Below, one piece after another: positions 6,507 through 57,744 of a stretch of 64,000 nucleotides of DNA. The position numbers were made by a program, and so were the translations under genes. Origin of the DNA: an uncultured virus (IMG/VR IMGVR_UViG_3300008267_005860) (taxonomy: Duplodnaviria > Heunggongvirae > Uroviricota > Caudoviricetes); IMG/VR virus record IMGVR_UViG_3300008267_005860, one strand, 5' to 3'. How positions within the stretch are numbered: position 1 is the stretch's first letter; every line of letters starts with the position of its first letter. The notes under the pieces are model-generated. The model did no database searches. It had not been told where the DNA came from and saw only the letters and a program-made list of their open reading frames with translations.

Positions 6507-6507
6507 T

Positions 6508-9048: not shown

Positions 9049-9059
9049 GGATTAGCAGT

Positions 9060-18304: not shown

Positions 18305-18305
18305 C

Positions 18306-26197: not shown

Positions 26198-26207
26198 CAT
26201 TTGTATG

Positions 26208-26236
26208 TTGACATTGTCAGTTTTTTAATATATAAT
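26208..26236 (+). promoter_or_regulatory. Consensus sigma70 promoter TTGACA-N17-TATAAT
   Basis: -35 at 26208-26213, -10 at 26231-26236. Confidence 0.88.
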
Positions 26237-26242
26237 AGTGCT

Positions 26243-38856: not shown

Positions 38857-41520
38857 TTGTACGTAGACGCACTCTTTCAGCGTGATGCTGATATTATTAA
38901 AGTAGTGGAACGTGATAAAGATGGAAATCGAGTCTTTAAAGAATTTCCAGTTCGTTATACGTTTTATTATCCAGATGCTAGAGGTAAATTCCAAAGTATT
39001 CATGGAGACCCTTTAAGTCGCATCGTTTGTAAAAACACCAAAGACTTTCGCAAAGAACTTGCGATTCACAACAACAAAACACTCTACGAAGCAGATATTA
39101 ATCCAATATTTGTATGCTTGAGTGAAAACTATCTTAATCAAGACGCACCAAAACTCAATGTAGCTTTTTGGGATATTGAGGTGGACTTCGATCCAGAACG
39201 TGGCTATGCATCGCCAGATGATGCATTCATGCCAATTACTGCCATTGCTGTCCACCTACAATGGTTAGATACATTAGTTTGTCTTGCTGTGCCTCCAAAA
39301 GGCATGACTATTGCCCAAGCAGAAGAACTAGTCAGAGATTTTCCCAACACACATATCTTTGACAATGAAGCAGACATGCTGGACACGTTCTTGAATCTTA
39401 TTCAAGATGCGGATATTTTAAGTGGTTGGAACAGCGAGGGCTTTGATATGCCCTATACTGTTAACCGCATTACCAAAGTATTGAGCAAAGACGACACACG
39501 CAGACTTTGCTTGTGGGATCAATATCCTAAAAAACGTGAATATGAAAAGTATGGTAAAACTGCCACTACATATGATCTACATGGTCGTGTGCATCTTGAC
39601 AGTCTAGAACTTTACAGAAAATACACCTATGAAGAACGACACACCTATCGATTGGATGCCATCGGAGAGATGGAGATTGGAGAATCAAAAACAGTCTACG
39701 AAGGTACACTGGATCAACTCTACAACAATGACTTCCGCAAGTTTGTCGAATACAACAGGCAAGACTGTGCCTTGCTCAACAAACTGGATCAAAAGCTCAA
39801 GTTCATCGATTTAAGCAACAAACTGGCACACGAATGTACTGTGCTACTACAGACCACAATGGGTGCTGTGGCTGTTACTGAACAGGCTATTATCAACGAA
39901 TGCCATCGTAGAGGTTTTCAAGTTCCTAATCGACCCAAGCGTGATGAAAGCGAAGATACTGCTGCCGCTGGTGCTTATGTTGCCTATCCCAAAGAAGGTC
40001 TGCAAGACTGGGTTGGCTCATTAGACATTAACTCCTTGTATCCAAGTGCTATTCGTGCATTGAACATGGGACCAGAAACTATTGTAGGTCAACTACGTCC
40101 TACAATGACCAAAGAGTACATTGACGGATTAACTGCCAAAGGTAAAAGCTTTGCGGCTGCTTGGGAAGGTATCTTTGGTTCATTAGAGTATACCGCAGTG
40201 ATGAACAAAGAGATTGGCTCTGAGATTACTATCGACTGGCAAGACGGTGCAGTTGATGTATTAAGTGCTGCCGAAGTTAATAGATTAATCTTTGACAGCG
40301 GTCAATCATTTATGTTGAGTGCTAACGGAACAATCTTTACCTATGAAAAAGAAGGTATTATTCCCGGGTTGTTAAAACGCTGGTATGCTGAACGTAAAGA
40401 GATGCAGGCCAAACTCAAAGAATGTATTCAAGCAGGTAATAAAGTTGAAGAAGAATATTGGGACAAACGTCAGTTGGTTAAGAAGATTAACCTCAATTCC
40501 TTATATGGTGCTATTCTTAACCCCGGTTGTCGTTTTTTTGATAAGCGTATTGGTCAGAGCACTACTTTAACAGGAAGACAGATTGCCAAGCATATGGCAT
40601 CAAAGGTCAATGAGATTATCACTGGGGAATACAATCACGTAGGCAAAGCAATTATCTACGGCGACACTGACTCATGTTATTTTAGTGCATACAAAACACT
40701 AAAGAAAGAAATTGAAGCAGGACACATTCCTTGGACTAAAGAAACTGTGATCCAACTCTATGATCAAATTGGAGATGAAGTCAACAATACATTCCCACAG
40801 TTTATGTTAGATGCTTTCCACTGTCCTAAATCTCGTGGTGAAGTTATCAAAGCTGGTCGTGAGATTGTTGGTTCAAAGAGTTTGTTCATTACCAAGAAAC
40901 GTTATGCTGTCTTGTACTATGACAAAGAAGGCAAGCGTCAAGACATTGAAGGTAAGCCGGGTAAGATCAAGGCCATGGGCTTGGATCTGAAACGTAGTGA
41001 TACGCCAGAATTTATTCAAAACTTCTTAAGTGATATTTTGGAGAAAGTCTTAACTGGTGCCACAGAAGAACAGGTATTAGATCATATTACTGAATTCCGT
41101 ACTAACTTCAAAGCTCGTCCAGGTTGGGAAAAGGGTAGCCCTAAACGTGCTAACAATATCACTGCCTATCAGGGCAAAGAAGAAAAGAACGGCAAGACTA
41201 ATATGCCTGGACACGTTCGAGCCAGCATTAACTGGAATACGCTCAAACGTATGTATGGCGACAAGTACTCAATGCAGATCACAGACGGTGCCAAAGTAAT
41301 TGTCTGTAAGATCAAAGATAATCCGTTGGGATTTACTTCGGTAGCTTATCCGGTAGATGAACTACGGCTACCACAGTGGTTCAAAGACTTACCGTTTGAT
41401 CACGAAGAAATGGAAGCTACAATTATTGATAATAAATTGGGTAACCTAATTGGTGTACTTAATTGGGACATTAGGTCAACCGAACAGACCAATACCTTCA
41501 ATAAATTGTTTGACTTTTAA
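38857..41520 (+). CDS. polB: Family B DNA polymerase with 3'-5' exonuclease
   Basis: DIEVD, WNSEGFD, DINSLYPS, KINLNSLYG, YGDTDS, KKRY; C-terminal KLFDF clamp-binding-like tail; TTG start after AGGAG. Confidence 0.96.
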   Translation: MYVDALFQRDADIIKVVERDKDGNRVFKEFPVRYTFYYPDARGKFQSIHGDPLSRIVCKNTKDFRKELAIHNNKTLYEADINPIFVCLSENYLNQDAPKLNVAFWDIEVDFDPERGYASPDDAFMPITAIAVHLQWLDTLVCLAVPPKGMTIAQAEELVRDFPNTHIFDNEADMLDTFLNLIQDADILSGWNSEGFDMPYTVNRITKVLSKDDTRRLCLWDQYPKKREYEKYGKTATTYDLHGRVHLDSLELYRKYTYEERHTYRLDAIGEMEIGESKTVYEGTLDQLYNNDFRKFVEYNRQDCALLNKLDQKLKFIDLSNKLAHECTVLLQTTMGAVAVTEQAIINECHRRGFQVPNRPKRDESEDTAAAGAYVAYPKEGLQDWVGSLDINSLYPSAIRALNMGPETIVGQLRPTMTKEYIDGLTAKGKSFAAAWEGIFGSLEYTAVMNKEIGSEITIDWQDGAVDVLSAAEVNRLIFDSGQSFMLSANGTIFTYEKEGIIPGLLKRWYAERKEMQAKLKECIQAGNKVEEEYWDKRQLVKKINLNSLYGAILNPGCRFFDKRIGQSTTLTGRQIAKHMASKVNEIITGEYNHVGKAIIYGDTDSCYFSAYKTLKKEIEAGHIPWTKETVIQLYDQIGDEVNNTFPQFMLDAFHCPKSRGEVIKAGREIVGSKSLFITKKRYAVLYYDKEGKRQDIEGKPGKIKAMGLDLKRSDTPEFIQNFLSDILEKVLTGATEEQVLDHITEFRTNFKARPGWEKGSPKRANNITAYQGKEEKNGKTNMPGHVRASINWNTLKRMYGDKYSMQITDGAKVIVCKIKDNPLGFTSVAYPVDELRLPQWFKDLPFDHEEMEATIIDNKLGNLIGVLNWDIRSTEQTNTFNKLFDF

Positions 41521-41556: not shown

Positions 41557-42288
41557 ATGAAAGACATTTTAACAGACATCGTAGCACATACACACAGCCT
41601 AGGAATTCTTCCTCTGATTAAAATTACAGGCGAAGATGATACTACAATAATTGAATCTATGGCAGAAGACCGTTCAGTTATTCTTAACGGAAAGACACAT
41701 GCCGTAATTGGTGAGTTCGACGGAGTGTTTGGTATGCCAAACTTGGACAAACTTAATCTACACCTTAAGAATCCCGAGTACAAAGATAACGCCACTATTG
41801 AAGTTATGCAGGCAGAACGCAATGGCAAAACTGTGCCAGTAAGTCTACACTTTGAAAATCAGTCAGGCGACTTTGTCAACGACTATCGCTTTATGAACGC
41901 TGAAATTATCAATGAAAAGCTTAAGACAGTTAAGTTCAAAGGTGCTACTTGGGATATTGAGTTTGAACCTACAGTTACTAGTATTCAACGTCTTAAGCTA
42001 CAGGCGCAGGCACATACAGAAGAAACTGTTTTCCAAGTTAAAACAGAAGGCGGCAACTTGGTATTCTTCTTCGGTGATGCTTCAACACACGCAGGTTCAT
42101 TTACTTTCCATGCAGATGTTAAATCTAAACTTAAACAATCGTGGGCATGGCCGGTTACACAGGTAATGAGCATTCTTAATCTTGACGGTGACAAGACTAT
42201 GCGTATTGCCGACGCAGGTGCAATGCAGATTACTGTTAACAGCGGTCTAGCAGAGTACAACTACATTCTGCCAGCACAGAGCAAGTAA
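41557..42288 (+). CDS. Probable sliding clamp (gp45/PCNA-like)
   Basis: 243 aa, follows polB, C-terminal YNYILPA strand; clamp loader present in the window. Confidence 0.6.
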   Translation: MKDILTDIVAHTHSLGILPLIKITGEDDTTIIESMAEDRSVILNGKTHAVIGEFDGVFGMPNLDKLNLHLKNPEYKDNATIEVMQAERNGKTVPVSLHFENQSGDFVNDYRFMNAEIINEKLKTVKFKGATWDIEFEPTVTSIQRLKLQAQAHTEETVFQVKTEGGNLVFFFGDASTHAGSFTFHADVKSKLKQSWAWPVTQVMSILNLDGDKTMRIADAGAMQITVNSGLAEYNYILPAQSK

Positions 42289-42467
42289 TGAGTGAAACAC
42301 ATTCAAGAACACTGGCAAGGACGGTAGGTTGGCGCATCATTGCGACTATAATGACTATACCGTTTACTGGATTATCTACAGCTATTTTGATACATGTTAT
42401 ACTCACTGTAGCTCATTATATCCACGAAAGAGTTTGGTTAAAAATAAAGTGGGGCAAAGTTGAATAA
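42288..42467 (+). CDS. DUF2061-like small membrane protein (59 aa, absent from the ORF track)
   Basis: MSETHSRTLARTVGWRIIAT...HYIHERVWLKIKWG; TAATG coupling. Confidence 0.75.
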   Translation: MSETHSRTLARTVGWRIIATIMTIPFTGLSTAILIHVILTVAHYIHERVWLKIKWGKVE

Positions 42468-44010
42468 AAATTTAACAGCAACTCAAAATGACTATGCATA
42501 CTTCCTGCCAGCAACGTCAGGATTTTATAGTACATTTATAGGCAAGCAGAGATACAGCAATTATGTAGACCCTGCTCGTATTCCTAAATCGTTTAAAAAT
42601 GGTGTTGAGAGTTTAAACTATTTAGACCCAGATAAAGGTCAATTTTACTACGACCATTGTTTGTATTCAGCAGGTCATGCTAATTTAGATCTTAACAAGC
42701 AAGACGAAAGCGAAGATATGTTCCGCAATCGTAATCGCGCTACAAGTTGGGTGCTAGGTGACTCAGGTGGATTCCAGATTGGTAAAGGTGTTTGGCCTGC
42801 TGATTGGAAAGATCCTAACTGTCCTAAAGCACAAAAGAAACGTGAACAAGTTTTAACTTGGATGGACACGCTAATGGACTATGGCATGGTGCTGGATATT
42901 CCAGCATGGGTTGCTCGTAGTCCTGTAGGAAAGGCTGCAACAGGAATTACTAGTTACCCAGAAGCAGTACAGGGAACTTATATTAATAATGATTGGTTTA
43001 TTAACAATCGTAATGGTAACTGCAAGTTCCTTAATGTTCTACAAGGCGAAAATCACCCAGATGCTGATGATTGGTACGATCGTATGAAGAAGTACTGCGA
43101 TACTAAAATCTATGGCGATCGTGCGTTCAACGGATGGTCAATGGGTGGACAAAATATGTGCGATGTACACTTGGTTCTACGTAGACTAGTGGAATTACGA
43201 TTCGACGGACTCCTTGAAAAGGGTCAGCAGGATTGGATGCACTTCCTGGGCACTTCTAAATTAGAATGGGCAACTTTATTAACCGATATTCAACGATCAG
43301 TGAGGAAATACCATAATGAAAACTTTACCATATCTTTTGACTGCGCCTCACCGTTTCTGGCAACAGCAAACGGACAAATCTACATTACAACAGAAACAGA
43401 AGACAGAAAGAAATGGGTTTACCGTATGCAGGCTTCGGCAGACGACAAAAAATATGCCCAAGACACAAGACTCTTCAAAGATGCAGTAATACAAGATAAC
43501 ATTTTTAGTGCATTTGAGTCAAGCCCTATTATTGACCAAGTTGAAATAAAAGATATTTGTATCTATGCTCCGGGCGACCTAAATAAGATTGGCAAAGAAG
43601 GCAAGACATCATGGGATTCATTTAGCTATGCTATTATGATGGGTCATAATGTTTGGATGCACGTTAACGCAGTACAAGAAGCCAATCGTCAATACGATTC
43701 TGGTAAAATACCTAGTATGTTAGTTCAAGAAAAATTTGATCGAATCTTCTTTAAGGATGTAGTCGAAGCCATTTTTGCCACAAGTAATAAAGGTGAAGCG
43801 TTGGCTATTATCGAAGAGTTCCGAAGATATTTTGATACCATTATTGGTACTCGGGGCAATACTGGTAAGAAAATGACTAATTCGTCGGCTAATTATACCA
43901 AATTCTTTGACGAAGTAGATACAGAGACTGTACAATCTGAACACAGTGATGAATTCACTGACGAGGAAGAATCAAAATTAAACCAGCTAGAATCACAGGT
44001 AAAAGAATGA
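42460..44010 (+). CDS. TGT-fold base-exchange enzyme (DpdA/tRNA-guanine transglycosylase-like)
   Basis: DSGGFQ, MVLD, NVLQG, HFLG, SFDCAS motifs in TGT order; neighbours include folE and queE. Confidence 0.75.
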   Translation: MNKNLTATQNDYAYFLPATSGFYSTFIGKQRYSNYVDPARIPKSFKNGVESLNYLDPDKGQFYYDHCLYSAGHANLDLNKQDESEDMFRNRNRATSWVLGDSGGFQIGKGVWPADWKDPNCPKAQKKREQVLTWMDTLMDYGMVLDIPAWVARSPVGKAATGITSYPEAVQGTYINNDWFINNRNGNCKFLNVLQGENHPDADDWYDRMKKYCDTKIYGDRAFNGWSMGGQNMCDVHLVLRRLVELRFDGLLEKGQQDWMHFLGTSKLEWATLLTDIQRSVRKYHNENFTISFDCASPFLATANGQIYITTETEDRKKWVYRMQASADDKKYAQDTRLFKDAVIQDNIFSAFESSPIIDQVEIKDICIYAPGDLNKIGKEGKTSWDSFSYAIMMGHNVWMHVNAVQEANRQYDSGKIPSMLVQEKFDRIFFKDVVEAIFATSNKGEALAIIEEFRRYFDTIIGTRGNTGKKMTNSSANYTKFFDEVDTETVQSEHSDEFTDEEESKLNQLESQVKE

Positions 44011-44267
44011 CATTGCCCGATGAACGGTATCGTTCCGTAGTACAAACTAGAAGATTTTTGTTGGATCTTTGTAATCCACAGCACACTCCACGAGTTCCAA
44101 AAATTATAAGAGAACATGCACGAGCTATGTTGCGTCATTACCCAAGTGACTGGGATATGACTCGTGCCGCAGAAGGTGCTCCAGATGTGTTCCAAGAACG
44201 TATGGAAGCAGTAACAAGACTTATGAAACAGTACGAAAACTCAAAGGCTGAAAAGAATGAAGCGTGA
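44007..44267 (+). CDS. BPSL0761-like small protein
   Basis: MTLPDER...AR.MLRHYP pattern. Confidence 0.6.
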   Translation: MTLPDERYRSVVQTRRFLLDLCNPQHTPRVPKIIREHARAMLRHYPSDWDMTRAAEGAPDVFQERMEAVTRLMKQYENSKAEKNEA

Positions 44268-44775
44268 TTATACAGACGGAGAGTTAGACAATGCTGTATT
44301 CTTCTTTGGACAAGAAGTAGAACATACCCCAGCATATAATATGAACACATTGTTTGTAGTAGGTGTTCAACCAATTGATGCTATTGAAGGTGCATTGTCT
44401 AATCAAAATATTAAACATATTTTCTTTGGTGCTAATCACAGTTTTAACCCTAGTAATTTTATTGAGCACAAAGAATGGGAAGAGATGATTTTCCATTTTC
44501 TAGATGCAGAATATCTTTGCTCATTAGATATTCCTATAAGTCAAGTTGAAGAATTCCACGAAAGCGGATACTGTGAGTATGATAATTTTATTCCGCAAAT
44601 TCGTGTGCCAATTCCCTATATTAAATTATGGAATTATAATACAATGCTTAAAATCGATGATAAAGATTTTAAGGCAACTAATCCCGGTGTATGGTCCCAC
44701 AGTCTACATACACTAATGGATCGCAGTAAGTTCACAGACTGGTTACAATACAAAAATGACAAGGTATTAAAATGA
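44257..44775 (+). CDS. Hypothetical protein in the modification cluster
   Basis: Coupled ORF; EVEHTP, FFGANHSF, KIDDKDF..TNPGVW segments. Confidence 0.7.
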   Translation: MKRDYTDGELDNAVFFFGQEVEHTPAYNMNTLFVVGVQPIDAIEGALSNQNIKHIFFGANHSFNPSNFIEHKEWEEMIFHFLDAEYLCSLDIPISQVEEFHESGYCEYDNFIPQIRVPIPYIKLWNYNTMLKIDDKDFKATNPGVWSHSLHTLMDRSKFTDWLQYKNDKVLK

Positions 44776-44975
44776 AAGAAATCATTGTCAAAGATAGTCC
44801 CGGATTTCAACTTCGGATTAAAAAATGGGAGTGTGCTAACCCTAAAGGTTTGTTTGCTGTTCATTTTATTCAAGCAACTAAAGACAAAGATGGTAACGTC
44901 GATAGTGAATCAACATACGAATTCTTCATGGAAGAATCCGATCTTAAATTAGTATCCGAGGCATTAATTAAATGA
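44772..44975 (+). CDS. Hypothetical protein
   Basis: ATGA overlaps at both ends. Confidence 0.65.
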   Translation: MKEIIVKDSPGFQLRIKKWECANPKGLFAVHFIQATKDKDGNVDSESTYEFFMEESDLKLVSEALIK

Positions 44976-45361
44976 TTATTCGGCAAGACGTTCGTCCTAA
45001 CAAAATGATTTGGGTCACCTTCCGCAAAGAAGGTATGCACAAGTATCCAGCCGCACTTACAGATCCAGCACTTGCTACAGGTGATGAATATGATGTAAGT
45101 TTTCTAGGATATCCGCATCGTCACATCTTCCACTTTAAAGTGTGGATTGGTGTTACACACGATGATCGTGATATTGAGTTTATTCAGTTTAAACGCTGGT
45201 TGGAAAATCTGTACAGTTCAGGTACACTCCAACTAGACTACAAGAGTTGCGAAATGATGTCAGGCGATTTATACGACAGCATTTCCAATAAGTATCCAGG
45301 TCGTGAGATTTGGATTGAGGTCTCCGAAGACGGAGAAAATGGTTCATTTATTAAGTACTAA
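44972..45361 (+). CDS. QueD-like T-fold enzyme (DpdL-like)
   Basis: LGYPHRHIF (LxxxHRHxF) in place of QueD CxxxHGHxY; SCE and VSEDGEN acidic motifs. Confidence 0.65.
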   Translation: MIIRQDVRPNKMIWVTFRKEGMHKYPAALTDPALATGDEYDVSFLGYPHRHIFHFKVWIGVTHDDRDIEFIQFKRWLENLYSSGTLQLDYKSCEMMSGDLYDSISNKYPGREIWIEVSEDGENGSFIKY

Positions 45362-45377
45362 CTAGAAAGAGGCTATC

Positions 45378-45653
45378 ATGGCTATTAATTATAAAAACGT
45401 TTCTTACTTTGAAACCCGCCCTGACATTGTAAAGATCTTTGATGATCTAGAAGCGTTCCACAATTTCTGTAAATTTGAAATGTGCGACTTTAACGAGGCT
45501 AATCTCTACAATAGGAATAGTCAGATCTGGAACAACTACTACTACAGTACTCGTCCAAAGAAACCCTGGAACGGTGAGCGCAAACCACGTGGCGAATACA
45601 ATCGCAGTGGTGGTAACAATTACAACAACAATAGAAACTTTAACCGTCAATGA
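45378..45653 (+). CDS. Hypothetical protein with Asn/Arg-rich tail
   Basis: GAGG RBS. Confidence 0.7.
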   Translation: MAINYKNVSYFETRPDIVKIFDDLEAFHNFCKFEMCDFNEANLYNRNSQIWNNYYYSTRPKKPWNGERKPRGEYNRSGGNNYNNNRNFNRQ

Positions 45654-46720
45654 TCTATATTGTTGATTTAGAAGCTGTTGAAACTCGCTACACAGCGCAA
45701 TGGAAAGAACATGTACCTAAACTTCTTAAAAAATCTGGACATCAGATTCAAGTTATCTCTGGTCCTGAAGATGTTCCTCGTGCCACTACTCCTGGTGCCT
45801 TTCTCAATTTTGGCGGCACTAATATCTATAAGTCTTGCCAAGTTGAAGAATTTAGTCGCTTATTTACATCCGGATCAGTTAAGCCAGGGGATCATTTTTT
45901 GTTTACTGATGCTTGGCACCCTGGCATCATAAACTTAAAATACATGAGTGAACTGTTGGGTATTCCGGTAGTTACTCATGGATTATGGCATGCTGGCAGT
46001 TATGATCCTCAAGACTTCCTAGGACGTCTTGTTGGAGATAAGCCTTGGGTTAGAAATGCAGAGAAGAGTTTCTTTCATGCATTTGATCACAACTACTTTG
46101 CCACTGACTTCCATATTGATATGTTTGCACACAATCTATTAAGCATAGATTTTGACACAGCAAAACTTTCATATATCGATAAAAATAAAATTGTACGCAC
46201 AGGATGGCCTATGGAATATATGGAAGATACACTTACTCCATATAAGAATATGCCCAAGAGAGATCTTATCTTGTTCCCGCATCGTATTGCACCTGAGAAG
46301 CAAGTAGAAATCTTTAGAGATTTAAAACATCATTTGCCGCAATATGAATTCGTAGTTTGTCAGGATCAACAGCTGACAAAAAATGAATATCACAATTTAC
46401 TAGGTGAAGCAAAGTTAGTGTTCAGTGCCAACTTACAAGAAACACTAGGTATTAGCTGTTACGAGGGTGCTATCGTTGATGCTATTCCTATGGTGCCCGA
46501 TAGACTATCATACAAAGAAATGTATTACGATACATTTAAGTATCCTAGCAAGTGGACAGAAAACTACGATGCATACACCGTGTACCGTCCGGATCTCTGT
46601 CGTGCTATTATGATCCATATGGATAATTATAAAACTAGATTACCTATGCTTCGTAAACAAACGGGGGATTTACATGAGCAATTCTTCTCAGCCAAAGAAT
46701 TATACAGACGATTTACTTAA
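45650..46720 (+). CDS. GT-B (GT4-like) glycosyltransferase
   Basis: HRIAPEKQ and ETLGISCYEG (E-x7-E) donor-binding motifs. Confidence 0.8.
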   Translation: MIYIVDLEAVETRYTAQWKEHVPKLLKKSGHQIQVISGPEDVPRATTPGAFLNFGGTNIYKSCQVEEFSRLFTSGSVKPGDHFLFTDAWHPGIINLKYMSELLGIPVVTHGLWHAGSYDPQDFLGRLVGDKPWVRNAEKSFFHAFDHNYFATDFHIDMFAHNLLSIDFDTAKLSYIDKNKIVRTGWPMEYMEDTLTPYKNMPKRDLILFPHRIAPEKQVEIFRDLKHHLPQYEFVVCQDQQLTKNEYHNLLGEAKLVFSANLQETLGISCYEGAIVDAIPMVPDRLSYKEMYYDTFKYPSKWTENYDAYTVYRPDLCRAIMIHMDNYKTRLPMLRKQTGDLHEQFFSAKELYRRFT

Positions 46721-47066
46721 CGAAGTAATGATCAGTGCCGGTGGCACTGGTGTAGATACAGACAGTGTCACTATTACATTGCCCAGTGATACAATGTCAT
46801 CTTACAGTGGGGGCATTGTTACATTAACAGGTAGTGGTGCAGGTTCTGTTTATACTATTAACACCACTGATACAATAACTTTAACAGACGGTTTTACTAA
46901 CATCTGGACAAATGAACAGAATGAATGGGTAGATAAATTCCCAGAATGGGATAGAATTAAAGATATGTGTAAACAATATCCTAGTTTAGAAATTGCATTA
47001 CGAAATTTTGAAACTATCTATAAACTAGTAAAGGACGACTATGATAATCCGACTCCTAAAAAATAA
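46674..47066 (+). CDS. Hypothetical protein
   Basis: Low-complexity N-half, helical C-terminus; start uncertain. Confidence 0.55.
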   Translation: MSNSSQPKNYTDDLLNEVMISAGGTGVDTDSVTITLPSDTMSSYSGGIVTLTGSGAGSVYTINTTDTITLTDGFTNIWTNEQNEWVDKFPEWDRIKDMCKQYPSLEIALRNFETIYKLVKDDYDNPTPKK

Positions 47067-47520
47067 ATTCTTTAGATTTTTAGAACGTAATGATCGCAAA
47101 AGAATCATTATGGATCGTGTCAGTGAAGAACCGTATCTTGAACGGTACTATGTTTTTCTTAAAGACAGAACATGGTTTCCATTTAACGTGTTTCTACACA
47201 AATTTCTTAAGTCAGATCCCGATGATGTGCATGACCATCCATGGCCTTACGCTACTCTAATTCTTAAAGGAGGGTACTATGAATGGCTTCCACAGTTTGA
47301 CAGTGGAGGTAACAAGATCGCCGAAATGTGTGTATGGAGAGGGCCTGGAAGTTTTCGTATATGTGGTGCTACTAGTTATCATCGTATCGAGCTTGACCCT
47401 AGTGTAGATTGTTGGACTTTGTTTATGCCTGGTCCGCAAAAAAGAGAATGGGGATTTCTCGTAAACAATAAATGGATTCCAAATGGCGACTATTTACAAG
47501 AACGTAAACTCCGCGGTTAG
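47041..47520 (+). CDS. Cupin-fold protein
   Basis: HDHPW...ILKGGYYE...YHRIEL...WTLF metal-binding cupin pattern. Confidence 0.7.
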   Translation: MIIRLLKNKFFRFLERNDRKRIIMDRVSEEPYLERYYVFLKDRTWFPFNVFLHKFLKSDPDDVHDHPWPYATLILKGGYYEWLPQFDSGGNKIAEMCVWRGPGSFRICGATSYHRIELDPSVDCWTLFMPGPQKREWGFLVNNKWIPNGDYLQERKLRG

Positions 47521-47878
47521 TCCAGGCTACGGCGCTGTACCGCCACTAACAGTCGGATATACTACCAATACTACCGCAGGACCGTTTTTAACTACCAACG
47601 GTTCAGGAGCAACTAATTGGGCTACTGTGTCACCTAACTATAACATAAGCGACGGAGTAATGAAGGTAAGCGGAGACCCTGCTACGCTAGAAGTCAAAGG
47701 TAAAATGGTGCTTAACGGACGGGACTTGGAAGAACGGTTAGACACAATCGAAAAAGTCTTGCAGATTCCTGAACGTGATGTTATACTTGAAAAAAATTAT
47801 CCGTTACTTAAACAAAAGTACGATGATTACATTAATACACTTTCTAAATATAGAATGTGGGAAGAACTTAAAAAATGA
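47483..47878 (+). CDS. Hypothetical protein
   Basis: Coupled ORF. Confidence 0.6.
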   Translation: MATIYKNVNSAVSPGYGAVPPLTVGYTTNTTAGPFLTTNGSGATNWATVSPNYNISDGVMKVSGDPATLEVKGKMVLNGRDLEERLDTIEKVLQIPERDVILEKNYPLLKQKYDDYINTLSKYRMWEELKK

Positions 47879-48462
47879 AAAAAATACATTACAGTTGGGC
47901 ACAGATAGAAGGAGCATGTTTAGACATTGCTCGACAACTATCTAAAGACAACTGGCGTCCAGATTATATAGTAGGTATTAGTCGAGGCGGATTAATACCT
48001 GCTACATTATTGAGTCACTATATTAATGTGCCAATGAAACCTTTGCAGGTTAGTCTGCGAGACGGTGGCGAGTGTGTTAGCGATTGCAGTATGGCTGAAG
48101 ATGCATTTGGATATCCCAGACAAGAAATTCATATTGCAGATGAAACCGACATTGGGGCTGTTTTAGATGCCGCATCAAGTTTGTTAGAAATGCCCGAAGC
48201 AACGGGATATAAAAATATTCTTGTTGTAGATGATATTAATGATCAAGGCACTACTATTGCATGGATTAAAAAGGACTGGCAATCTAGTTGTTTGCCTGAA
48301 GATCCAGATTGGCAACATGTTTGGAGTAATAACGTAAGATTTGCTACACTAACTAATAATCTAGCCAGCAATGAAACAGTAGATTATTCTGTTTGGGAAG
48401 TTAACAAAGCAGAGGATGATTGCTGGCTGGTCTATCCCTGGGAAGAGTATTGGCTAAAATGA
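47875..48462 (+). CDS. Purine phosphoribosyltransferase (Gpt-like)
   Basis: GISRGGLIPA, ILVVDDINDQGTT PRPP loop, WLVYPWE. Confidence 0.88.
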   Translation: MKKIHYSWAQIEGACLDIARQLSKDNWRPDYIVGISRGGLIPATLLSHYINVPMKPLQVSLRDGGECVSDCSMAEDAFGYPRQEIHIADETDIGAVLDAASSLLEMPEATGYKNILVVDDINDQGTTIAWIKKDWQSSCLPEDPDWQHVWSNNVRFATLTNNLASNETVDYSVWEVNKAEDDCWLVYPWEEYWLK

Positions 48463-48650
48463 AATTTTTTCTTGGCTTTTTAATAGCTACTGTAATATGG
48501 ATAGTAGTTCTAGCGGCTATTCCTATGCCGGAAGAACGGGTTCGTATCTACGATTGCGGAATGGCCGAATGGCATCCTGATATTCCAGAAGATGTAAAAA
48601 ATGCCTGTAGGAAACGATTTAAAAATGTACAACCAGGTCCAATAACATGA
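48459..48650 (+). CDS. Small membrane-anchored protein
   Basis: MKFFLGFL TM helix then YDCGMAEWHPD...C. Confidence 0.6.
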   Translation: MKFFLGFLIATVIWIVVLAAIPMPEERVRIYDCGMAEWHPDIPEDVKNACRKRFKNVQPGPIT

Positions 48651-48913
48651 TCAATATTAATCTGAATATTAGGAATCCTTTCAATAGAAACTTTAAACGT
48701 TTGTGGGGGTGTGCTCGTAGCACACCATTCGCACATAAATTTGTTGAGTTTCAACTGTATAAGGATAATAGTATAATATCTATTAATATTAATTGGACAT
48801 TTAGACAAGATCATTCGGGACTAAACATTGACATTGGTTTTTTAAGTTACTGTTTTGATTTTAATTTTTACGACAGTCGTCACTGGGATTTTAATAAGGG
48901 ACACTACCAATGA
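48647..48913 (+). CDS. Hypothetical protein
   Basis: ATGA overlaps at both ends. Confidence 0.55.
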   Translation: MININLNIRNPFNRNFKRLWGCARSTPFAHKFVEFQLYKDNSIISININWTFRQDHSGLNIDIGFLSYCFDFNFYDSRHWDFNKGHYQ

Positions 48914-49725
48914 CTACAATGACTTTATTTCCTGGTCCCAAAATTGGTATTGTAGGCGCAGGATATGTAGGCGGTGCTATTGCTCGAGCTTATAGCGATA
49001 CTATGGCGCAAATAATCTGCGTAGATGCAGACCCTAGCAAATCTACTGGCACATATCAAGATCTTATGGACTGTGAAGCTGTGTTTGTCTGTGTTCCTAG
49101 TCCTAGTAAGCCCAGCGGAGAATGTGATACTAGCATACTCAATTCAGTATTATATCTGCTCAAAGATTATAAAAATCTTATTATCAGTAAAACTACTGCT
49201 ACTCCAGACTTTTACCAAAGATCACAAGAAATATATCCTAATCTAGTACATGTTCCAGAATTCCTAACTGCGGCTAATGCATTACACGACTTTCTCACAC
49301 AAGAATATGTTATAATTGGTGGATCTGTATTGGCCTATCAAAGAGAAGCAGAAAGAATACTGAAATTTGTACAGCCAATTAAAGCGGCTGCATATACTTC
49401 AATTGGCGAGGCTGCACTAACAAAATACATAATAAACTCATTTCTTGCTACCAAAGTAGTGTTTATGAATGAAATGTATGAATTAGCAGATAGTTTAGGA
49501 TTCGATTGGCGGAAACTGTCTATACTCCTTATGAGTGATTCTAGACTAGGAGGTAGCCATATGATTGTACCAGGTCCAGATGGCCAATTTGGATTTGGTG
49601 GAGCATGTTTTCCCAAAGACACAGAAGCTCTTATTAAATTTGCCGCTAAAAAGAATGTAAACCTAAATACTTTGAAGGCAGCAGTAAAGAAAAACGATCT
49701 TTTGAGGTTGCAAAAACCTAAATAA
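48910..49725 (+). CDS. UDP-glucose/GDP-mannose dehydrogenase-like protein lacking the C-terminal domain
   Basis: GAGYVG, VCVPSP, PEFL, KYIINSFLATK, GFGGACFPKD; only 271 aa. Confidence 0.85.
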   Translation: MTTMTLFPGPKIGIVGAGYVGGAIARAYSDTMAQIICVDADPSKSTGTYQDLMDCEAVFVCVPSPSKPSGECDTSILNSVLYLLKDYKNLIISKTTATPDFYQRSQEIYPNLVHVPEFLTAANALHDFLTQEYVIIGGSVLAYQREAERILKFVQPIKAAAYTSIGEAALTKYIINSFLATKVVFMNEMYELADSLGFDWRKLSILLMSDSRLGGSHMIVPGPDGQFGFGGACFPKDTEALIKFAAKKNVNLNTLKAAVKKNDLLRLQKPK

Positions 49726-49736
49726 TCGTGTACAAT
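49708..49736 (+). promoter_or_regulatory. Sigma70-type promoter TTGCAA-N17-TACAAT with a nested TAAATA
   Basis: -35 at 49708-49713, -10 at 49731-49736; CCTAAATA at 49717-49724. Confidence 0.55.
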
Positions 49737-49777
49737 GTACAATAGTCATCCACGACAATAACTCGGAGAACAATAAA

Positions 49778-50602
49778 TTGACAAATGATTTTACCCCAGA
49801 TCCTGTAATGAATACACCCATTGATCGAAAATTTAAAGCTGACGAATATTTGCCACTGGACAAAAAAGTCTATATTAAAGCCGGCGAGGACATGAGCGAC
49901 AAGGGCTACGAAGAAGCATATCTAGCAGACACACTTCGCTTTAAGATGAAACGTGATAAAAAGAGATTCTGGGCAGGTGACAATATCAGTGACTATGTTG
50001 ACGAAGAAAAGAAAAATCAACTCATTGACGAAGCAACCGAAGCATTTGAACTAGTGCTTGATCGATTGCTGATCGATCGTGAAAACGATCCTAATTCAAA
50101 AGGCACAGCACGTAGACTTGCCAAGATGTACTTCAACGAAATAATGGCAGGACGATATGAACCAGGACCAGATGCAACCGCATTTCCAAACGATTCGGCA
50201 GACCGCTATGAGGGTATGCTGGTTGTACGTAGCGAGCTTCGTAGTATGTGTAGTCATCATCATCAGCCTGTTAGTGGTGTTGCCTATATTGGTATTATTG
50301 CCGCTAATAAACTTATTGGCTTATCGAAATATACACGTATCGCACAGTGGTGTGCTAGACGAGGTACTCTCCAGGAGGAACTTTGTAACGACATCGCCCG
50401 CGAGATTAGTAAAGCTACTGACTCAGAGAACGTAGCAGTCTATGTACAAGCTGTGCATGGTTGTTGCGAGAACCGCGGCATTATGGCACACTCGTCATTG
50501 ACTCAAACTACTGTATTAAAAGGAACATTTAAAGATGATCCTCATACAAAGAAAGAGTTCTTTGATAATATTAAACTGCAACAAGAGTTTGCACCACGTT
50601 AA
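49778..50602 (+). CDS. folE: GTP cyclohydrolase I
   Basis: SMCSHHHQP, IGLSKY.R, LQE, HGCCENRG. Confidence 0.95.
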   Translation: MTNDFTPDPVMNTPIDRKFKADEYLPLDKKVYIKAGEDMSDKGYEEAYLADTLRFKMKRDKKRFWAGDNISDYVDEEKKNQLIDEATEAFELVLDRLLIDRENDPNSKGTARRLAKMYFNEIMAGRYEPGPDATAFPNDSADRYEGMLVVRSELRSMCSHHHQPVSGVAYIGIIAANKLIGLSKYTRIAQWCARRGTLQEELCNDIAREISKATDSENVAVYVQAVHGCCENRGIMAHSSLTQTTVLKGTFKDDPHTKKEFFDNIKLQQEFAPR

Positions 50603-50611
50603 GGAGATAAT

Positions 50612-50788
50612 ATGATGGATAAATTTTTTATATGGGTTGGACGTAACAGAAAAGAAATTAGCCTTACAATTGGTGGGCTAAACATACTGTCTGGAATCAG
50701 TGCATTAGTAAGCGGTAACTATGGACTTGCTATAGTAGGATTTACAATTGGCGGTGCTCTTATTTTTGATGCTTACCGGGGAATTTAA
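50612..50788 (+). CDS. Small membrane protein (58 aa, absent from the ORF track)
   Basis: AAGGAG RBS; MMDKFFIWVGRNRKEISLTIGGL...DAYRGI*; fills the gap exactly. Confidence 0.7.
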   Translation: MMDKFFIWVGRNRKEISLTIGGLNILSGISALVSGNYGLAIVGFTIGGALIFDAYRGI

Positions 50789-51298
50789 ATGAGTCAAGTT
50801 TATTTAATTAAACCACTTGAAAAGAAAAGCATTGTCTATCATGTAGAAATGTTTCGTGAGAACCCAGATGGTACAGTAAGTTGGTTTAACATTGACGAAA
50901 CTTATCGTTGGGGTCAGGGCTTTATTGAAGCGGATCTTGACTGTAATCTTCCCTGGGATGGTGACAATGTTGCCTATGCCAAACCAGATGTAGGTTGGGG
51001 CTGTGAGTTTGACGACAGCATCAGTGTTGAATGGGAATTCAGCGACGATATTAAAGAATTAGAACAACAAGAACTCAAAGAACTTTACTATGAAGGTGGT
51101 GCCGGTTGGCTCTACGATGGTGAACACGATTGGCAAGAAGAAGACTGTGCTGTTCATATTATTGCACCGTACCAAGTTAGTTTATGTGATGAGCTAACAG
51201 GCGAAGTTATTGAAGAAAATGTTAAATTAAAACCTAGACCAAATCCAAGTACATCATGGCCATTTAGTCCAGCATTTCCAAAACCTGAGGAAGAATAA
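50789..51298 (+). CDS. Acidic hypothetical protein
   Basis: Coupled ORF. Confidence 0.7.
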   Translation: MSQVYLIKPLEKKSIVYHVEMFRENPDGTVSWFNIDETYRWGQGFIEADLDCNLPWDGDNVAYAKPDVGWGCEFDDSISVEWEFSDDIKELEQQELKELYYEGGAGWLYDGEHDWQEEDCAVHIIAPYQVSLCDELTGEVIEENVKLKPRPNPSTSWPFSPAFPKPEEE

Positions 51299-51516
51299 TG
51301 AATACTGCTAAAGATATAATGGATCAGTTTATCAGTCGTGCAAAGAACTTGCAAGAGTTTACTATTTGCACCAATGTACCGGATAATTTTAGATTTAACG
51401 GAGTCGTACCATTTGATATGCGAATTGAAGACGATACTATCTATGCTAAAGTATGGGCTGTAGAATTTGATGAAGCCGCTAAAAAGTTAGATGATTTTTT
51501 AGAAACATGTAAGTGA
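51298..51516 (+). CDS. Hypothetical protein
   Basis: GAGG RBS, TAATG coupling. Confidence 0.65.
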   Translation: MNTAKDIMDQFISRAKNLQEFTICTNVPDNFRFNGVVPFDMRIEDDTIYAKVWAVEFDEAAKKLDDFLETCK

Positions 51517-51911
51517 ATAAAAAAATGACAGATAAATTTTTTGACGGTCCTGACGATAAAGACGACAGCGAAGCACCTTGGGATGATATTGTCCGAGAAG
51601 ACTTCCATATTGCTGTGTACAGAGACAAATATCCTGTAACAGAAGGACATCTATTGTTTGTCCCCAAATACAATACAGTGACTATTGTAATGCAGGCTAT
51701 GGATGATGCACTACGCGAAGGTCGTAGAGGTGTTGAACTAGGCGAGTGGGACGGTTTTAATGTAGGTATTAACTACGGTGAAGCAAGTGGTCAAACAGTT
51801 ATGTGGCCTCATGTACATATGATTCCTAGACGCAATGGCGATATGGAAGATCCTAGAGGAGGCGTAAGACATGTTATTCCAGAACGTGGTAACTACAAAA
51901 AAGAAACATAA
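51513..51911 (+). CDS. HIT-family nucleotide hydrolase
   Basis: YPVTEGHLLFVPK, GQTVMWPHVHMIPR. Confidence 0.88.
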   Translation: MNKKMTDKFFDGPDDKDDSEAPWDDIVREDFHIAVYRDKYPVTEGHLLFVPKYNTVTIVMQAMDDALREGRRGVELGEWDGFNVGINYGEASGQTVMWPHVHMIPRRNGDMEDPRGGVRHVIPERGNYKKET

Positions 51912-51921
51912 AAAAATAGAT

Positions 51922-52161
51922 ATGCCTACTAAACCAGAGTGGTATCAAAATGATATACCTAGTGATCAAGTAATTACTGTCAAGTGGCACAATCAAAACA
52001 GTCATTGGTGGAATGAAACGTGTGCCAGTGTACTAGAAGTATTTGGATTGCCCGGTGGAAGGTTTTATTACAAACCTTATCCAGACTATATGACATTTAC
52101 TTTTAAAACAAAAAAAGATGCCAATTTATGTCGTATATTATTAAGTGAAAGGTTAGCATGA
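51922..52161 (+). CDS. Hypothetical protein
   Basis: Start taken at MPTKPEW, after the HIT stop. Confidence 0.55.
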   Translation: MPTKPEWYQNDIPSDQVITVKWHNQNSHWWNETCASVLEVFGLPGGRFYYKPYPDYMTFTFKTKKDANLCRILLSERLA

Positions 52162-52448
52162 AATGGTTTAAAAGATTGATAGCCAAGTGGGCACATCAAG
52201 GTCAAGATTATGTAGAAGTTCAATCTAAAGTTCCTCGATTAATCGGTAGAGACGAATGTGACGTAGTCTGTGACGACCCTATCTTACACTTTAAGGTGTT
52301 TAGTGCTGTAGGCGGGAAAGTTGTAGAGTTTAGACGTTATGATCGCAGGAGTGATCGCAATGATTCTACTACTTACATTATTACTAACGATCAAGACTTT
52401 GGTGATAGAATTAGTAAAATTGCAACAATGGAACAATTAAAATTATGA
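52158..52448 (+). CDS. Hypothetical protein
   Basis: Coupled ORF. Confidence 0.65.
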   Translation: MKWFKRLIAKWAHQGQDYVEVQSKVPRLIGRDECDVVCDDPILHFKVFSAVGGKVVEFRRYDRRSDRNDSTTYIITNDQDFGDRISKIATMEQLKL

Positions 52449-52795
52449 ATCCACAGACCCCAGCACAGGGTGTGCTACTGGTCACCGACTGGGGCACATC
52501 AAAGATGTATAAAGCAGTATGTGAGTGTGCCAACGACGACTGTACACATACAATTGACATTGAAGCAGAAGACACAGGTGTTAATGTAACCATTTACACA
52601 AAAACTAGAACAAACTTTTGGTCCAAATCTCGATGGCGGCACATTTGGAATCTATTAACCAAAGGATATACTGAGCTCGAAACTTGTATTATTATGCGTA
52701 AACAGGTTGCTCTTAACTATGCAAATGTGTTACAATTAGCAGTAAAGGACGTAGAAGAATTGAGGAACAAACATGGAAAAGATCAAAGTAAGTGA
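52445..52795 (+). CDS. Hypothetical protein with CEC...C.H motif
   Basis: Coupled ORF. Confidence 0.65.
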   Translation: MNPQTPAQGVLLVTDWGTSKMYKAVCECANDDCTHTIDIEAEDTGVNVTIYTKTRTNFWSKSRWRHIWNLLTKGYTELETCIIMRKQVALNYANVLQLAVKDVEELRNKHGKDQSK

Positions 52796-53645
52796 AATGT
52801 TTTATTCGGCGCAAGGAGAAGGACGCTTTGTAGGTGTCCCTTCTGTTTTCTTGCGTACATTTGGATGTAACTTTAAGTGTGCTGGATTTGGCATGCCTAA
52901 AGGCCAGTTAACTACTGAAGCAGATGCTGTAGCAGAGCAACAGATTTCTTTTAACAAATGGAAAACTTTTGAAGAGCTGCCGTTGGTAACTACAGGCTGT
53001 GACAGCTATGCCAGCTGGCATCCAGCATTTAAGGATTTAAGTCCTTACTATTCATTAGATGAATGTATAGGCAAAATGTTAGATCTTACACCTAACAAAC
53101 GCTGGACACAGGACAACGGTAATGATGTTCATTTAGTTATCACTGGCGGAGAGCCGTTGCTAGGATGGCAACAGTTATATACTCCATTATTAAAGAATCC
53201 TCTTATGCAGGATCTATGGAATGTAACTTTTGAAACTAATGGCACTCAAAAGCTCTATGAGCAGTTAAAGGTATTCATTGCATGGAATTGGAATGAGCAT
53301 ACAGGTAGAGAAGTTACCTTTAGTGTAAGTCCAAAATTAAGTGCCAGTGGTGAAGACTGGAATGATACTATTAAGCCTGAAGTAATTATTGACTATCAGG
53401 AAGTGGGTTTTGTGTATCTTAAATTTGTAGTGTCTACACTAGAAGATTTAGAAGAAGTAGATCGTGCAGTTGGGGTTTATAGACGTGCAGGATTTAGAGG
53501 GCCTGTGTATCTTATGCCAGTAGGCGGAGTTGTCAGTGTCTATGACAACAATAGAATACACATTGCAGATGAAGCATTAAAAAGAGGTTACTACTATAGT
53601 CCACGTTTACACGTTGACTTATGGGGTAACGGATGGGGGAAATAA
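52773..53645 (+). CDS. queE: 7-carboxy-7-deazaguanine synthase-like radical SAM enzyme
   Basis: EMFYSAQGEG..VG.PSVFLRT.GC, ITGGEP, ETNG, SVSPK, PRLH. Confidence 0.88.
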   Translation: MEKIKVSEMFYSAQGEGRFVGVPSVFLRTFGCNFKCAGFGMPKGQLTTEADAVAEQQISFNKWKTFEELPLVTTGCDSYASWHPAFKDLSPYYSLDECIGKMLDLTPNKRWTQDNGNDVHLVITGGEPLLGWQQLYTPLLKNPLMQDLWNVTFETNGTQKLYEQLKVFIAWNWNEHTGREVTFSVSPKLSASGEDWNDTIKPEVIIDYQEVGFVYLKFVVSTLEDLEEVDRAVGVYRRAGFRGPVYLMPVGGVVSVYDNNRIHIADEALKRGYYYSPRLHVDLWGNGWGK

Positions 53646-56580: not shown

Positions 56581-57672
56581 ATGAGCGAGATTAGTTCACG
56601 TACCGTTGGCCCAAAGGCCGCAAAAAAGAGTCTGCGTCGTGCCTTTAAAGCCAATCGTCCGTTGTTCCTTTGGGGCCCCCCGGGTATTGGCAAGTCTGAT
56701 ATTGTCAAACAAATGGGCGAGGAACTCGACGCTCATGTAATTGATATCCGTTTGAGTCTTTGGGAACCCACTGACATTAAAGGTATCCCCTATTTTAATT
56801 CTGAGTCCAATCGTATGGAATGGGCTCCTCCTATCGAATTGCCAGATGCAGAGTTGGCAGCAAAACATGACAAGATCATTTTGTTCATGGACGAAATGAA
56901 CTCTGCGGCTCCTGCTGTGCAGGCGGCGGCCTATCAGTTAGTGTTGAATCGTCGTGTTGGTACTTACCGCTTGCCTGACAACGTGCTCATCGTTGCCGCA
57001 GGTAACCGTGAAACTGACAAAGGTGTTACTTATCGTATGCCTGCTCCGTTGGCTAACCGCTTTGTTCACTTGGAAATGAAAGTAGACTGGGAAGATTACT
57101 TCCAGTGGGCTACTGACAATCGTATCCACAAGGATGTTGTTGGCTTCCTTACTTTCAGCAAGAAAGACCTCTACGACTTTGACCCAAAGGCTGCTTCACG
57201 TGCCTTTGCTACTCCCCGTTCATGGACCTTTGTATCCGAGCTGTTGTTTGATGACGATGAAGACGAAGGCACTTTGACTGACTTGGTAGCAGGTGCAGTT
57301 GGTGAAGGTCTTGCTGTTAAGTTCATGGCTCACCGCAAGATTGCAAGTAAGCTGCCTGATCCTACTCACATCTTAAAAGGCAAGGTAAAGAAGATGGACA
57401 CTAAAGAAATTAGTGCCATGTACTCTTTGACTGTTAGCCTATGCTACGAATTGAAAGATTCTGCAGATAAGAATGCCAAAGATTGGAATGACCAAGTTAA
57501 CTACTTCTTCGAATTTATGATGAATAACTTTGAAACTGAATTGGTTGTTATGGGTACTAAACTTGCACTTACTCAATATCAATTGCCTTTGGATCCAGAT
57601 GAGATCAAATGCTTTGATGACTTCCATGCCAAATACGGTCGCTTCATTGCTGCCGCTACTGAAAAGCGTTAA
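56581..57672 (+). CDS. MoxR-like AAA+ ATPase
   Basis: GPPGIGKS, FMDEMN, AAGN, PLANRF, TPRSW. Confidence 0.88.
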   Translation: MSEISSRTVGPKAAKKSLRRAFKANRPLFLWGPPGIGKSDIVKQMGEELDAHVIDIRLSLWEPTDIKGIPYFNSESNRMEWAPPIELPDAELAAKHDKIILFMDEMNSAAPAVQAAAYQLVLNRRVGTYRLPDNVLIVAAGNRETDKGVTYRMPAPLANRFVHLEMKVDWEDYFQWATDNRIHKDVVGFLTFSKKDLYDFDPKAASRAFATPRSWTFVSELLFDDDEDEGTLTDLVAGAVGEGLAVKFMAHRKIASKLPDPTHILKGKVKKMDTKEISAMYSLTVSLCYELKDSADKNAKDWNDQVNYFFEFMMNNFETELVVMGTKLALTQYQLPLDPDEIKCFDDFHAKYGRFIAAATEKR

Positions 57673-57689
57673 TTTGGTTGTGGTACCAT

Positions 57690-57718
57690 TTGACAGGACC
57701 TTCGGGTCCTGTTATAAT
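57690..57718 (+). promoter_or_regulatory. Consensus sigma70 promoter whose spacer is a UUCG hairpin
   Basis: TTGACA 57690-57695, TATAAT 57713-57718; ACAGGACC-TTCG-GGTCCTGT. Confidence 0.85.
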
Positions 57719-57744
57719 ATATACTGTATAAACAGGAGCAAATT

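Follow-up and report, generated by a model that had tools for sequence, protein, structure and literature searches.

A candidate QueC-free 7-deazaguanine DNA-modification cluster with a glycosyltransferase companion in an uncultured freshwater jumbo phage

The virus record IMGVR_UViG_3300008267_005860 comes from an uncultured freshwater jumbo phage, and its stretch of 64,000 nucleotides, here called the window, covers part of that phage's genome. Positions 42460-53645 of the window hold a cluster of nine enzyme genes, which on balance is best explained as a 7-deazaguanine DNA-modification module that lacks QueC and has a glycosyltransferase (GT) as companion. An earlier note on this DNA had described nine co-oriented, tightly coupled genes, and all of them are present on the + strand, encoding a protein with the fold of tRNA-guanine transglycosylases (TGT), a T-fold protein, a GT-B glycosyltransferase, a cupin, a purine phosphoribosyltransferase (PRTase), a nucleotide-sugar-dehydrogenase-like protein, FolE, a HIT-family protein and QueE. 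From the DNA polymerase gene polB onward, every open reading frame (ORF) is encoded on the + strand; the ORFs mostly overlap by 1-47 bases or are separated by at most 52 bases, with a single larger gap of 186 bases before position 50789. The note's view of the system as new did not hold for its core, which has already been published as a QueC-free set of the type that makes 2'-deoxy-7-deazaguanosine (dDG). The novelty appears to lie in a conserved GT added to this known core, an association that predicts a testable modification.

The T-fold protein (44972..45361, + strand) contains the sequence LGYPHRHIF (L45-G-Y-P-H49-R50-H51-I-F53), an instance of the motif LxxxHRHxF by which DpdL is told apart from QueD, whose motif is CxxxHGH (Cui, Hutinet et al., NAR 2023, PMC10516641, section 16). 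Judged by this motif it is a DpdL homologue and not QueD, of which DpdL is a paralogue, and its proposed activity is the decarboxylation of 7-carboxy-7-deazaguanine (CDG). A tblastn search found DpdL in 28 phage records, with identities of 72% in Sinorhizobium phage Phosso, 56% in the PA5oct group, 55% in ACP17 (E 7e-36) and 31% in the Cellulophaga phages phiST (gp040, CGPG_00067; E 9e-8), phi13:1 and phi19:2. Neither the single DpdL sequence nor a profile gave a meaningful match in the PDB.

For comparison we used as relatives the best 80 of 563 confirmed IMG/VR stretches, chosen by GT similarity; 67 of these loci have enough upstream flank and 42 enough downstream flank to be counted. DpdL is found in 67/67 (median identity 82%), GTP cyclohydrolase I (FolE; 49778..50602, + strand; PF01227 1.1e-38) in 40/42 (median identity 83%) and the QueE-like radical-SAM enzyme, a 7-carboxy-7-deazaguanine synthase (52773..53645, + strand; phrog_2076, 2.3e-51, full length), in 42/42. 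Instead of the canonical CxxxCxxC, QueE has CxxxC and a distal Cys, with C32 and C36 conserved as Cys in 65/65 sequences and C76 in 62/65; the pattern in phiST QueE is identical. NCBIfam/TIGR QueE models match the window protein partially, every score being under the cut-off.

As the earlier note had stated, the window ORFs gave no match to a QueC, QueF or ArcS family in Pfam scans. It had also suggested a search of the rest of the genome for queC and queD. QueC is absent from the nearest IMG/VR record (G001, 109 kb, 31% complete according to CheckV) and above cut-off in 0/5 large relatives. No QueD was found in G001, but a true QueD (PF01242) is encoded far from the cluster in 3/5 large relatives.

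The core agrees with a system for which chemistry is available. In phiST, phi13:1 and phi19:2, dDG replaces dG as determined by mass spectrometry (PMC10516641, section 15), and the note's expectation that the base is decarboxylated when QueC is lacking agrees with the DpdL/dDG pathway published for these phages (PMC10516641, sections 15-17). Like the window, phiST has FolE, QueE, a DpdL with LxxxHRHxF and a DpdA-family protein, and no QueC. It differs in having no GT and in its DpdA3 of 259 aa, compared with 516 aa in the window, while in the window's phage group QueD lies outside the cluster. An even closer arrangement is found in the Wroclawvirus PA5oct, where EST35_0316-0322 follow the order polB, clamp-like ORF, DpdA-like gene, GT, DpdL, PRTase, QueE and RNase H with identities of 33-56%; here an epimerase/dehydratase-like gene takes the place of the dehydrogenase-like gene, and FolE and QueD are encoded elsewhere in the genome. 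Cui et al. list DpdA3, FolE, QueD, QueE and DpdL for PA5oct (PMC10516641, Supplementary Data S1). Because of the DpdL motif, the lack of QueC, the QueE pattern shared with phiST and the same set listed for PA5oct, the core of FolE, QueE, DpdL and DpdA-family protein is the published QueC-free, DpdL-type set; in naming a 7-deazaguanine DNA-modification set without QueC the earlier note was thus correct.

The TGT-fold protein (42460..44010, + strand; 516 aa), a predicted DNA guanine/7-deazaguanine transglycosylase, matched no model of the hidden Markov model (HMM) libraries, and sequence and profile searches of the PDB gave nothing meaningful. Its AlphaFold2 (AF2) model (pLDDT 91.2) was matched by Foldseek to the tRNA-guanine transglycosylase 1q2r (E 2.3e-7) and by VIA to the T. 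maritima TGT 2ash (Z 18.1, 309 aligned residues, root mean square deviation (rmsd) 4.6) and to archaeosine TGT (Z 17.6). An exhaustive search returned 933 cluster representatives at E<=0.001. Among 53 aligned sequences D101 (in GDSGGFQ) and D294 (in FDCASP) are invariant; these are presumably the TGT catalytic aspartates, i.e. the Asp of the DSGG motif and the nucleophile. PF01702 was detected in only 2 of the 53 members (best E 0.043). Cultured relatives are 11 records of PA5oct-like Pseudomonas jumbo phages, Phosso and Vibrio phage 2.275.O, and BLASTP against ACP17 DpdA2 and phiST DpdA3 was not significant. The protein shares 33% identity over 99% of its length with PA5oct QCG76197.1, which is entered as DpdA3 in Supplementary Data S1 (PMC10516641). 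From these similarities the TGT-like protein likely belongs to the DpdA family, which Cui et al. consider the signature of post-replicative insertion (PMC10516641). With a median identity of 44% it diverges much faster within the clade than DpdL (82%), the GT (77%) or polB (78%), perhaps because its target motifs change or because it takes part in an arms race. Modelled as a complex, the TGT-like protein and the GT scored 0.00 against a mark of 0.32, which gave no verdict.

The GT gene (45650..46720, + strand) accompanies these genes well beyond the window. GT homologues were found in 22 phage records, and in 17 of them, comprising 11 PA5oct-like records, ACP17 (2), Phosso, BUDD, X1 and BCSR5 and drawn from five cultured lineages, DpdL lies within 2.8 kb; in the remaining five records, which gave no DpdL match, the GT similarity extends over only 62% of the protein, at 27% identity. 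The GT is located directly between DpdA2 and DpdL in ACP17, between DpdA3 and DpdL in PA5oct and immediately after DpdL in Phosso. In BUDD it adjoins an annotated TGT, and in BCSR5 an unannotated 446-aa ORF in the equivalent position. Among the IMG/VR relatives, all of which have the GT, the TGT-like gene is present in 67/67, as is DpdL, and the GT is conserved to the same extent as polB (median identities of 77% and 78%). The earlier note had declared its proposal refuted if the GT did not occur together with deazaguanine genes in relatives; it does so in 67/67 IMG/VR loci, in 17/22 phage records and in 25 loci of bacterial records. Comparative genomics hence shows the GT to be a fixed companion of the deazaguanine genes and argues that they form the same functional unit. 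The term 'glycosyltransferase' does not occur in the main text of PMC10516641, and the GT is also outside the columns seen of its Supplementary Data S1.

A scan of bacterial genomes identified 37 GT loci, nine of which look like phage contigs binned into metagenome-assembled genomes. In 25 loci the GT lies within about 2 kb of a DpdA-like gene, with DpdL adjacent in 14, further away in 3 and absent in 8; of the others, a locus in Paenibacillus (30% identity) lacks a partner gene, and two lie on contigs too short for a decision. The 25 loci belong to Pelagibacterium, Devosia, Ochrobactrum, Azospirillum, Aurantimonas, Methylobacterium, Magnetospirillum, Sulfitobacter, Roseobacter and others, and many are on contigs of 0.1-3.9 Mb; no phage replication genes surround them. 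Three of the islands (L100, L112 and L113) are flanked by resolvases or recombinases. Further genes of the islands encode a HEPN protein, a CoiA-nuclease-like protein, QueD, a weak match to a YhhQ-type transporter, a VapE-like primase and phage endonuclease I. Bacterial Dpd restriction-modification systems (DpdA/B/C) mark DNA with a 7-deazaguanine. The GT islands resemble them as chromosomal islands with a DpdA-family gene near nuclease-like and HEPN genes and recombinases, but no DpdB or DpdC was seen, and the GT, often with DpdL, lies beside the DpdA-like gene. The alphaproteobacterial islands with GT, DpdA-like gene and in part DpdL (loci L100-L125) may represent a modification-dependent defence island.

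The structural model of the 356-aa GT (pLDDT 92.9) shows a full GT-B fold with two Rossmann domains. VIA matched it to sucrose-phosphate synthase 6kih (Z 25.0, 316 aligned residues, rmsd 3.5), BshA 3mbo (Z 24.8, 302 aligned residues, rmsd 2.7) and MshA (Z 23.8), and Foldseek to glycogen synthase (3.8e-11) and BshA (2.4e-10), with a tetrahydrobiopterin glucosyltransferase at rank 40 (E 1e-7); the PDB, searched by sequence as well as by profile, yielded no meaningful match. PF00534 (Glycos_transf_1) is matched by 28/54 aligned family members (best E 5.5e-9), the homologues of BUDD and BCSR5 reaching 45.7 and 42 bits at a cut-off of 26.4, and the model 'GT4 in conflict systems' by 8/54. The C-terminal domain contains E264-TLGISCY-E272, presumably the EX7E motif of GT4-type enzymes, and both Glu residues are invariant in 54 sequences. 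Fold model and motif together indicate a real GT-B, GT4-like enzyme. With the retaining GT4 enzymes BshA and MshA it shares the fold and the two invariant Glu residues; at 10-12% identity it differs from them in sequence, and their acceptors are malate or inositol phosphate, with no link to nucleic acids. At least 8000 candidate homologues were found, with about 80% identity among the matches listed, and their source name is 'glycosyltransferase involved in cell wall biosynthesis'. A kinship with the queuosine-tRNA mannosyltransferase QTMAN/GTDC1 was considered and was not reproduced at the HMM level: QTMAN_N (PF12038) was found in 0/4 records at E<=10, in none of the 54 GT members at E<=0.01 and in none of the nearest Atlas clusters.

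A related case of base glycosylation in phages is that of the T4 alpha- and beta-glucosyltransferases, which glucosylate DNA containing 5-hydroxymethylcytosine. Like these, the window GT is a phage GT-B-type enzyme, predicted to add a sugar derived from a nucleotide-sugar to a modified base. The T4 acceptor, however, is the hydroxymethyl group of a pyrimidine, and the T4 enzymes gave no sequence match and no listed fold match to the window GT. That the GT serves a second, pyrimidine-based modification was also considered and rejected, as the window scans yielded no hydroxymethylase, only ThyX and dCMP deaminase.

CDG is the joint product of FolE, QueD and QueE, and enzymes of the DpdA family put a 7-deazaguanine in the place of G in DNA. 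Following this known pathway, FolE, QueE and a QueD encoded elsewhere in the genome would convert GTP to CDG, DpdL would decarboxylate CDG to 7-deazaguanine, and the DpdA-family protein would swap the latter for guanine in the phage DNA after replication. The GT would take a sugar from a nucleotide-sugar and attach it to the deazapurine, acting on the free base prior to its insertion or on the DNA, and the product, a purine carrying a sugar in the major groove, would block restriction. Guanine released by base exchange may be returned by the PRTase to GMP and the GTP pool that feeds FolE. Candidate acceptor sites are C7, freed by the decarboxylation through DpdL, and the 2-amino group, an option that recalls glycosylated 7-deazapurine natural products. 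Transfer of a sugar onto the deazapurine is a tentative assignment, somewhat short of an even chance. Equally tentative is the extended proposal, according to which the GT would place a sugar on the G-replacing 7-deazaguanine as a C7 glycoside, a chemically attractive route, or at the 2-amino group, tailoring genes of the individual lineages would diversify this sugar, and the alphaproteobacterial pair of GT and DpdA would serve as the self-mark of a restriction-type defence. Expression of ACP17 DpdL and DpdA2 in E. coli gave no dDG, and further enzymes were suggested to be necessary (Cui et al., PMC10516641). Since its gene lies between ACP17 DpdA2 and DpdL, the GT is an obvious candidate and may be the enzyme missing from this reconstitution.

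The other genes interleaved with the core were evaluated for their conservation. The cupin (47041..47520, + strand), of a 'cysteine dioxygenase'-type phage family (phrog_4786, 1.8e-37), is found in 37/42 relatives; its family occurs in 103 phage records, mostly of mycobacteriophages, with no DpdL phage among 40 of the 103 that were listed, and it is a generic phage gene and probably cargo. The type I purine PRTase-like protein (47875..48462, + strand; PF00156 5.9e-11; N-terminus matching xanthine PRTase NF006613, 6.7e-12) is encoded in 33/42 relatives and also in the PA5oct module (EST35_0321, PF00156 2e-11). No PRTase family match was obtained among the scanned part of the module ORFs of ACP17, BUDD, BCSR5 and Phosso, and none in the bacterial islands. 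The HIT-family nucleotide hydrolase/transferase (51513..51911, + strand; PF01230 1.7e-8) is present in 22/42 relatives.

The nucleotide-sugar-dehydrogenase-like protein (48910..49725, + strand; 271 aa; PF03721 1.7e-16, PF00984 1e-21) consists of the N-terminal and central domains only and has no UDP-binding C-terminal domain; TIGR03026 scored 149.8 at a cut-off of 189.8. It retains GxGxxG and GGACFPKD, which we take to be the NAD-binding and cysteine motifs of the dehydrogenase. In 31/33 tblastn rows the stop-to-stop frames measure 240-301 codons, the two exceptions being a contig-edge fragment (52 codons) and one full-length frame of 414, so that, by frame length, the short protein without UDP-binding domain is a conserved form. 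The gene is found in 15/42 relatives. Its homologues (loci L008-L097) form two groups of paralogues, located downstream of the GT and several kb upstream of it, respectively, and in neither group is the UDP-binding domain present; no homologue was found at E 1e-5 in seven named phage loci. Genes of a tailoring type differ between lineages: a dehydrogenase-like gene in the window, an epimerase/dehydratase-like gene in PA5oct and, beside the GT of BCSR5, a PIG-L-like deacetylase match below cut-off, a neighbourhood that presumably parallels the pairing of BshA with BshB.

Between the TGT-like gene (or the GT) and QueE, 62 relatives hold 146 further ORFs in 50 clusters. The 30 cluster representatives scanned include HhH-GPD glycosylase-like proteins (16 loci), NAD-type oxidoreductases (15 loci each, one match being weak), MazG (10 loci), 2-oxoglutarate-Fe (2OG-Fe) oxygenases, IMP dehydrogenase (IMPDH)/GMP reductase, tryptophan halogenase, sulfate permease, Bax1-I, D-Ala-D-Ala carboxypeptidase (peptidase S11), Clp protease and cytidylyltransferase. 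Examples of such variable cargo between GT and QueE are seen in the relatives L058, L073, L047 and L070. With so much cargo collecting in this interval, the location of the cupin, the dehydrogenase-like protein and HIT is no proof of their role; they are lineage-variable cargo or tailoring genes, and their interleaving with the core does not by itself argue for a common function.

Several points speak against a sugar-modifying module. The GT-QueE interval being a hot spot for cargo is one of them. GT4 enzymes usually use cell-envelope or small-molecule acceptors, and 7-deazaguanine offers no hydroxyl as acceptor. The window GT itself matches no Pfam model, and the GT is absent from 11/28 DpdL records, including phiST, which makes dDG. 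QueD was not found in the window, in G001 with its 31% completeness, or in 2/5 large relatives. In hhalign, the TGT-like family reached a probability of 96.5% with ACP17 DpdA2 and of 74.7% with phiST DpdA3, for which reason the protein is filed under the DpdA family without a subfamily. Finally, the phages with measured dDG are phiST, phi13:1 and phi19:2 alone, and the role of DpdL as CDG decarboxylase is a proposal (PMC10516641). A rival explanation is a plain dDG module as in phiST, with the GT and the interleaved enzymes as unrelated cargo, for example for host-envelope glycosylation or auxiliary metabolism, in a hot spot of the replication module. The dDG formed by phiST without a GT, the heterogeneous cargo together with the generic cupin, and the naming of GT homologues for cell wall biosynthesis are all in line with this explanation. 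It is nevertheless unlikely in view of the GT adjoining DpdA or DpdL in five cultured lineages and next to two DpdA types, of its pairing with DpdA-like genes in 25 chromosomal loci without surrounding phage replication genes, and of its universal presence in the clade with polB-like conservation.

The earlier note had suggested instead that the pathway ends at CDG or its decarboxylated form and that the GT and the dehydrogenase add an oxidised, uronic-type sugar. Although the dehydrogenase-like protein keeps both motifs in a conserved short form, a uronic sugar is not indicated, because the gene is confined to 15/42 relatives and the protein has no UDP-binding domain; the lack of homologues in the seven phage loci adds to this, and we regard this reading as distinctly improbable. 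A PRTase can lead from a deazapurine base to the nucleotide, as in tubercidin and toyocamycin biosynthesis. If the phage used such a route, the polymerase would incorporate the deazapurine triphosphate, leaving other tasks to the TGT-like protein and the GT. The PRTase in the window, its relatives and the PA5oct module would agree with it, as would MazG, HIT and IMPDH/GMP-reductase genes in or near the modules of relatives; this explanation is very improbable, given that no PRTase match was obtained among the ORFs scanned in ACP17, BUDD, BCSR5 and Phosso or in the bacterial islands, and that all of these loci have the DpdA-family protein taken as the post-replicative signature (PMC10516641). 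The least probable reading, to which we give very little weight, is that the substrate of the TGT-like protein and of the GT is RNA or a small molecule and not DNA, the product being for instance a pterin glycoside or a queuosine-like tRNA base carrying a sugar. The nearest solved folds are tRNA TGTs and a tetrahydrobiopterin glucosyltransferase is among the fold matches of the GT, but QTMAN_N was not found in the GT sequences scanned, the gene lies within the replication module next to polB, and PA5oct DNA resists restriction at G-containing sites, from which the authors infer a modified G in GA/GG (PMC12191111). On balance, the module with the GT as companion of the deazaguanine genes remains the best explanation.

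The cluster was described in the earlier note as following polB and the clamp. The polymerase is confirmed (38857-41520, + strand; PF00136 1.1e-37); the clamp is not, as the clamp-like ORF (41557-42288, + strand) has no family match and a sliding-clamp annotation is found only on its Phosso homologue (33% identity). Downstream of the TGT-like gene follow an 86-aa BPSL0761-family protein (44007-44267; NF041728 7e-18), present in 24/67 relatives, and a conserved 172-aa protein (44257..44775, + strand), to which no function is assigned. The latter occurs in 67/67 relatives and has an ACP17 homologue (29% identity) just upstream of DpdA2; it has no family match in the HMM libraries and no usable lead in the ESM Atlas. 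Between DpdL and the GT lies a small basic protein of 91 aa (45378..45653, + strand; isoelectric point (pI) 9.2) without family match, found in 63/67 relatives. As indicators of DNA binding the isoelectric points were uninformative, since polB and the TGT-like protein are likewise acidic.

With the whole cluster as query, megablast found no match in the phage collection. Close relatives of the window reach up to 280 kb with 79% completeness, and the stretch 42460-52400 is present in 20 public sequencing runs of 13 studies, labelled lake water (4), freshwater (11) or 'fungus metagenome' (5). The matching data are contigs or Illumina reads, which by their nature cannot show base modification.

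Other genes of the window were noted in passing. A MazG/PRA-PH-type nucleoside triphosphate pyrophosphohydrolase is encoded at 18201-18674 (PF01503 5.8e-10); MazG adjoins DpdL in phiST and is inside the module in 10 relatives, and it might contribute to dGTP depletion or to cleaning of the nucleotide pool. At 56581-58914 a MoxR-type AAA ATPase precedes a DUF2201 metallopeptidase/VWA protein, and PA5oct has an ATPase at a similar site downstream of its module. A 166-aa ORF (17180-17680) matches only a piece of the NTPase domain of DNA polymerase III alpha (PF07733 2.2e-10) and may be a split or remnant gene. A proteostasis set of Cpn10, DnaJ, peptide deformylase and a ClpB-like AAA+ protein is located at 17930-18304 and 26201-29805, a ferredoxin at 20287-20610 and a ferritin at 32789-33223, and the region 5277-12044 encodes an Mtd_N tropism-determinant protein followed by two subtilase-domain proteins (846 and 994 aa).

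To our knowledge, glycosylated bases in phage DNA are known only on pyrimidines. No description of a glycosylated deazaguanine in DNA was found in the titles and abstract beginnings of open-access papers and bioRxiv preprints, and the MIJ3 genome paper contains nothing on DNA modification. PA5oct-like phages are candidates for therapy and are targeted by defence nucleases that sense hypermodified DNA (PMC12191111). The gene set is very common, with at least 8000 GT candidates and 563 matching IMG/VR stretches. If the proposed role of the GT is true, it may explain the failure to rebuild dDG from DpdL and DpdA alone, and the product would be the first sugar-bearing purine known in natural DNA and a new class of DNA hypermodification.

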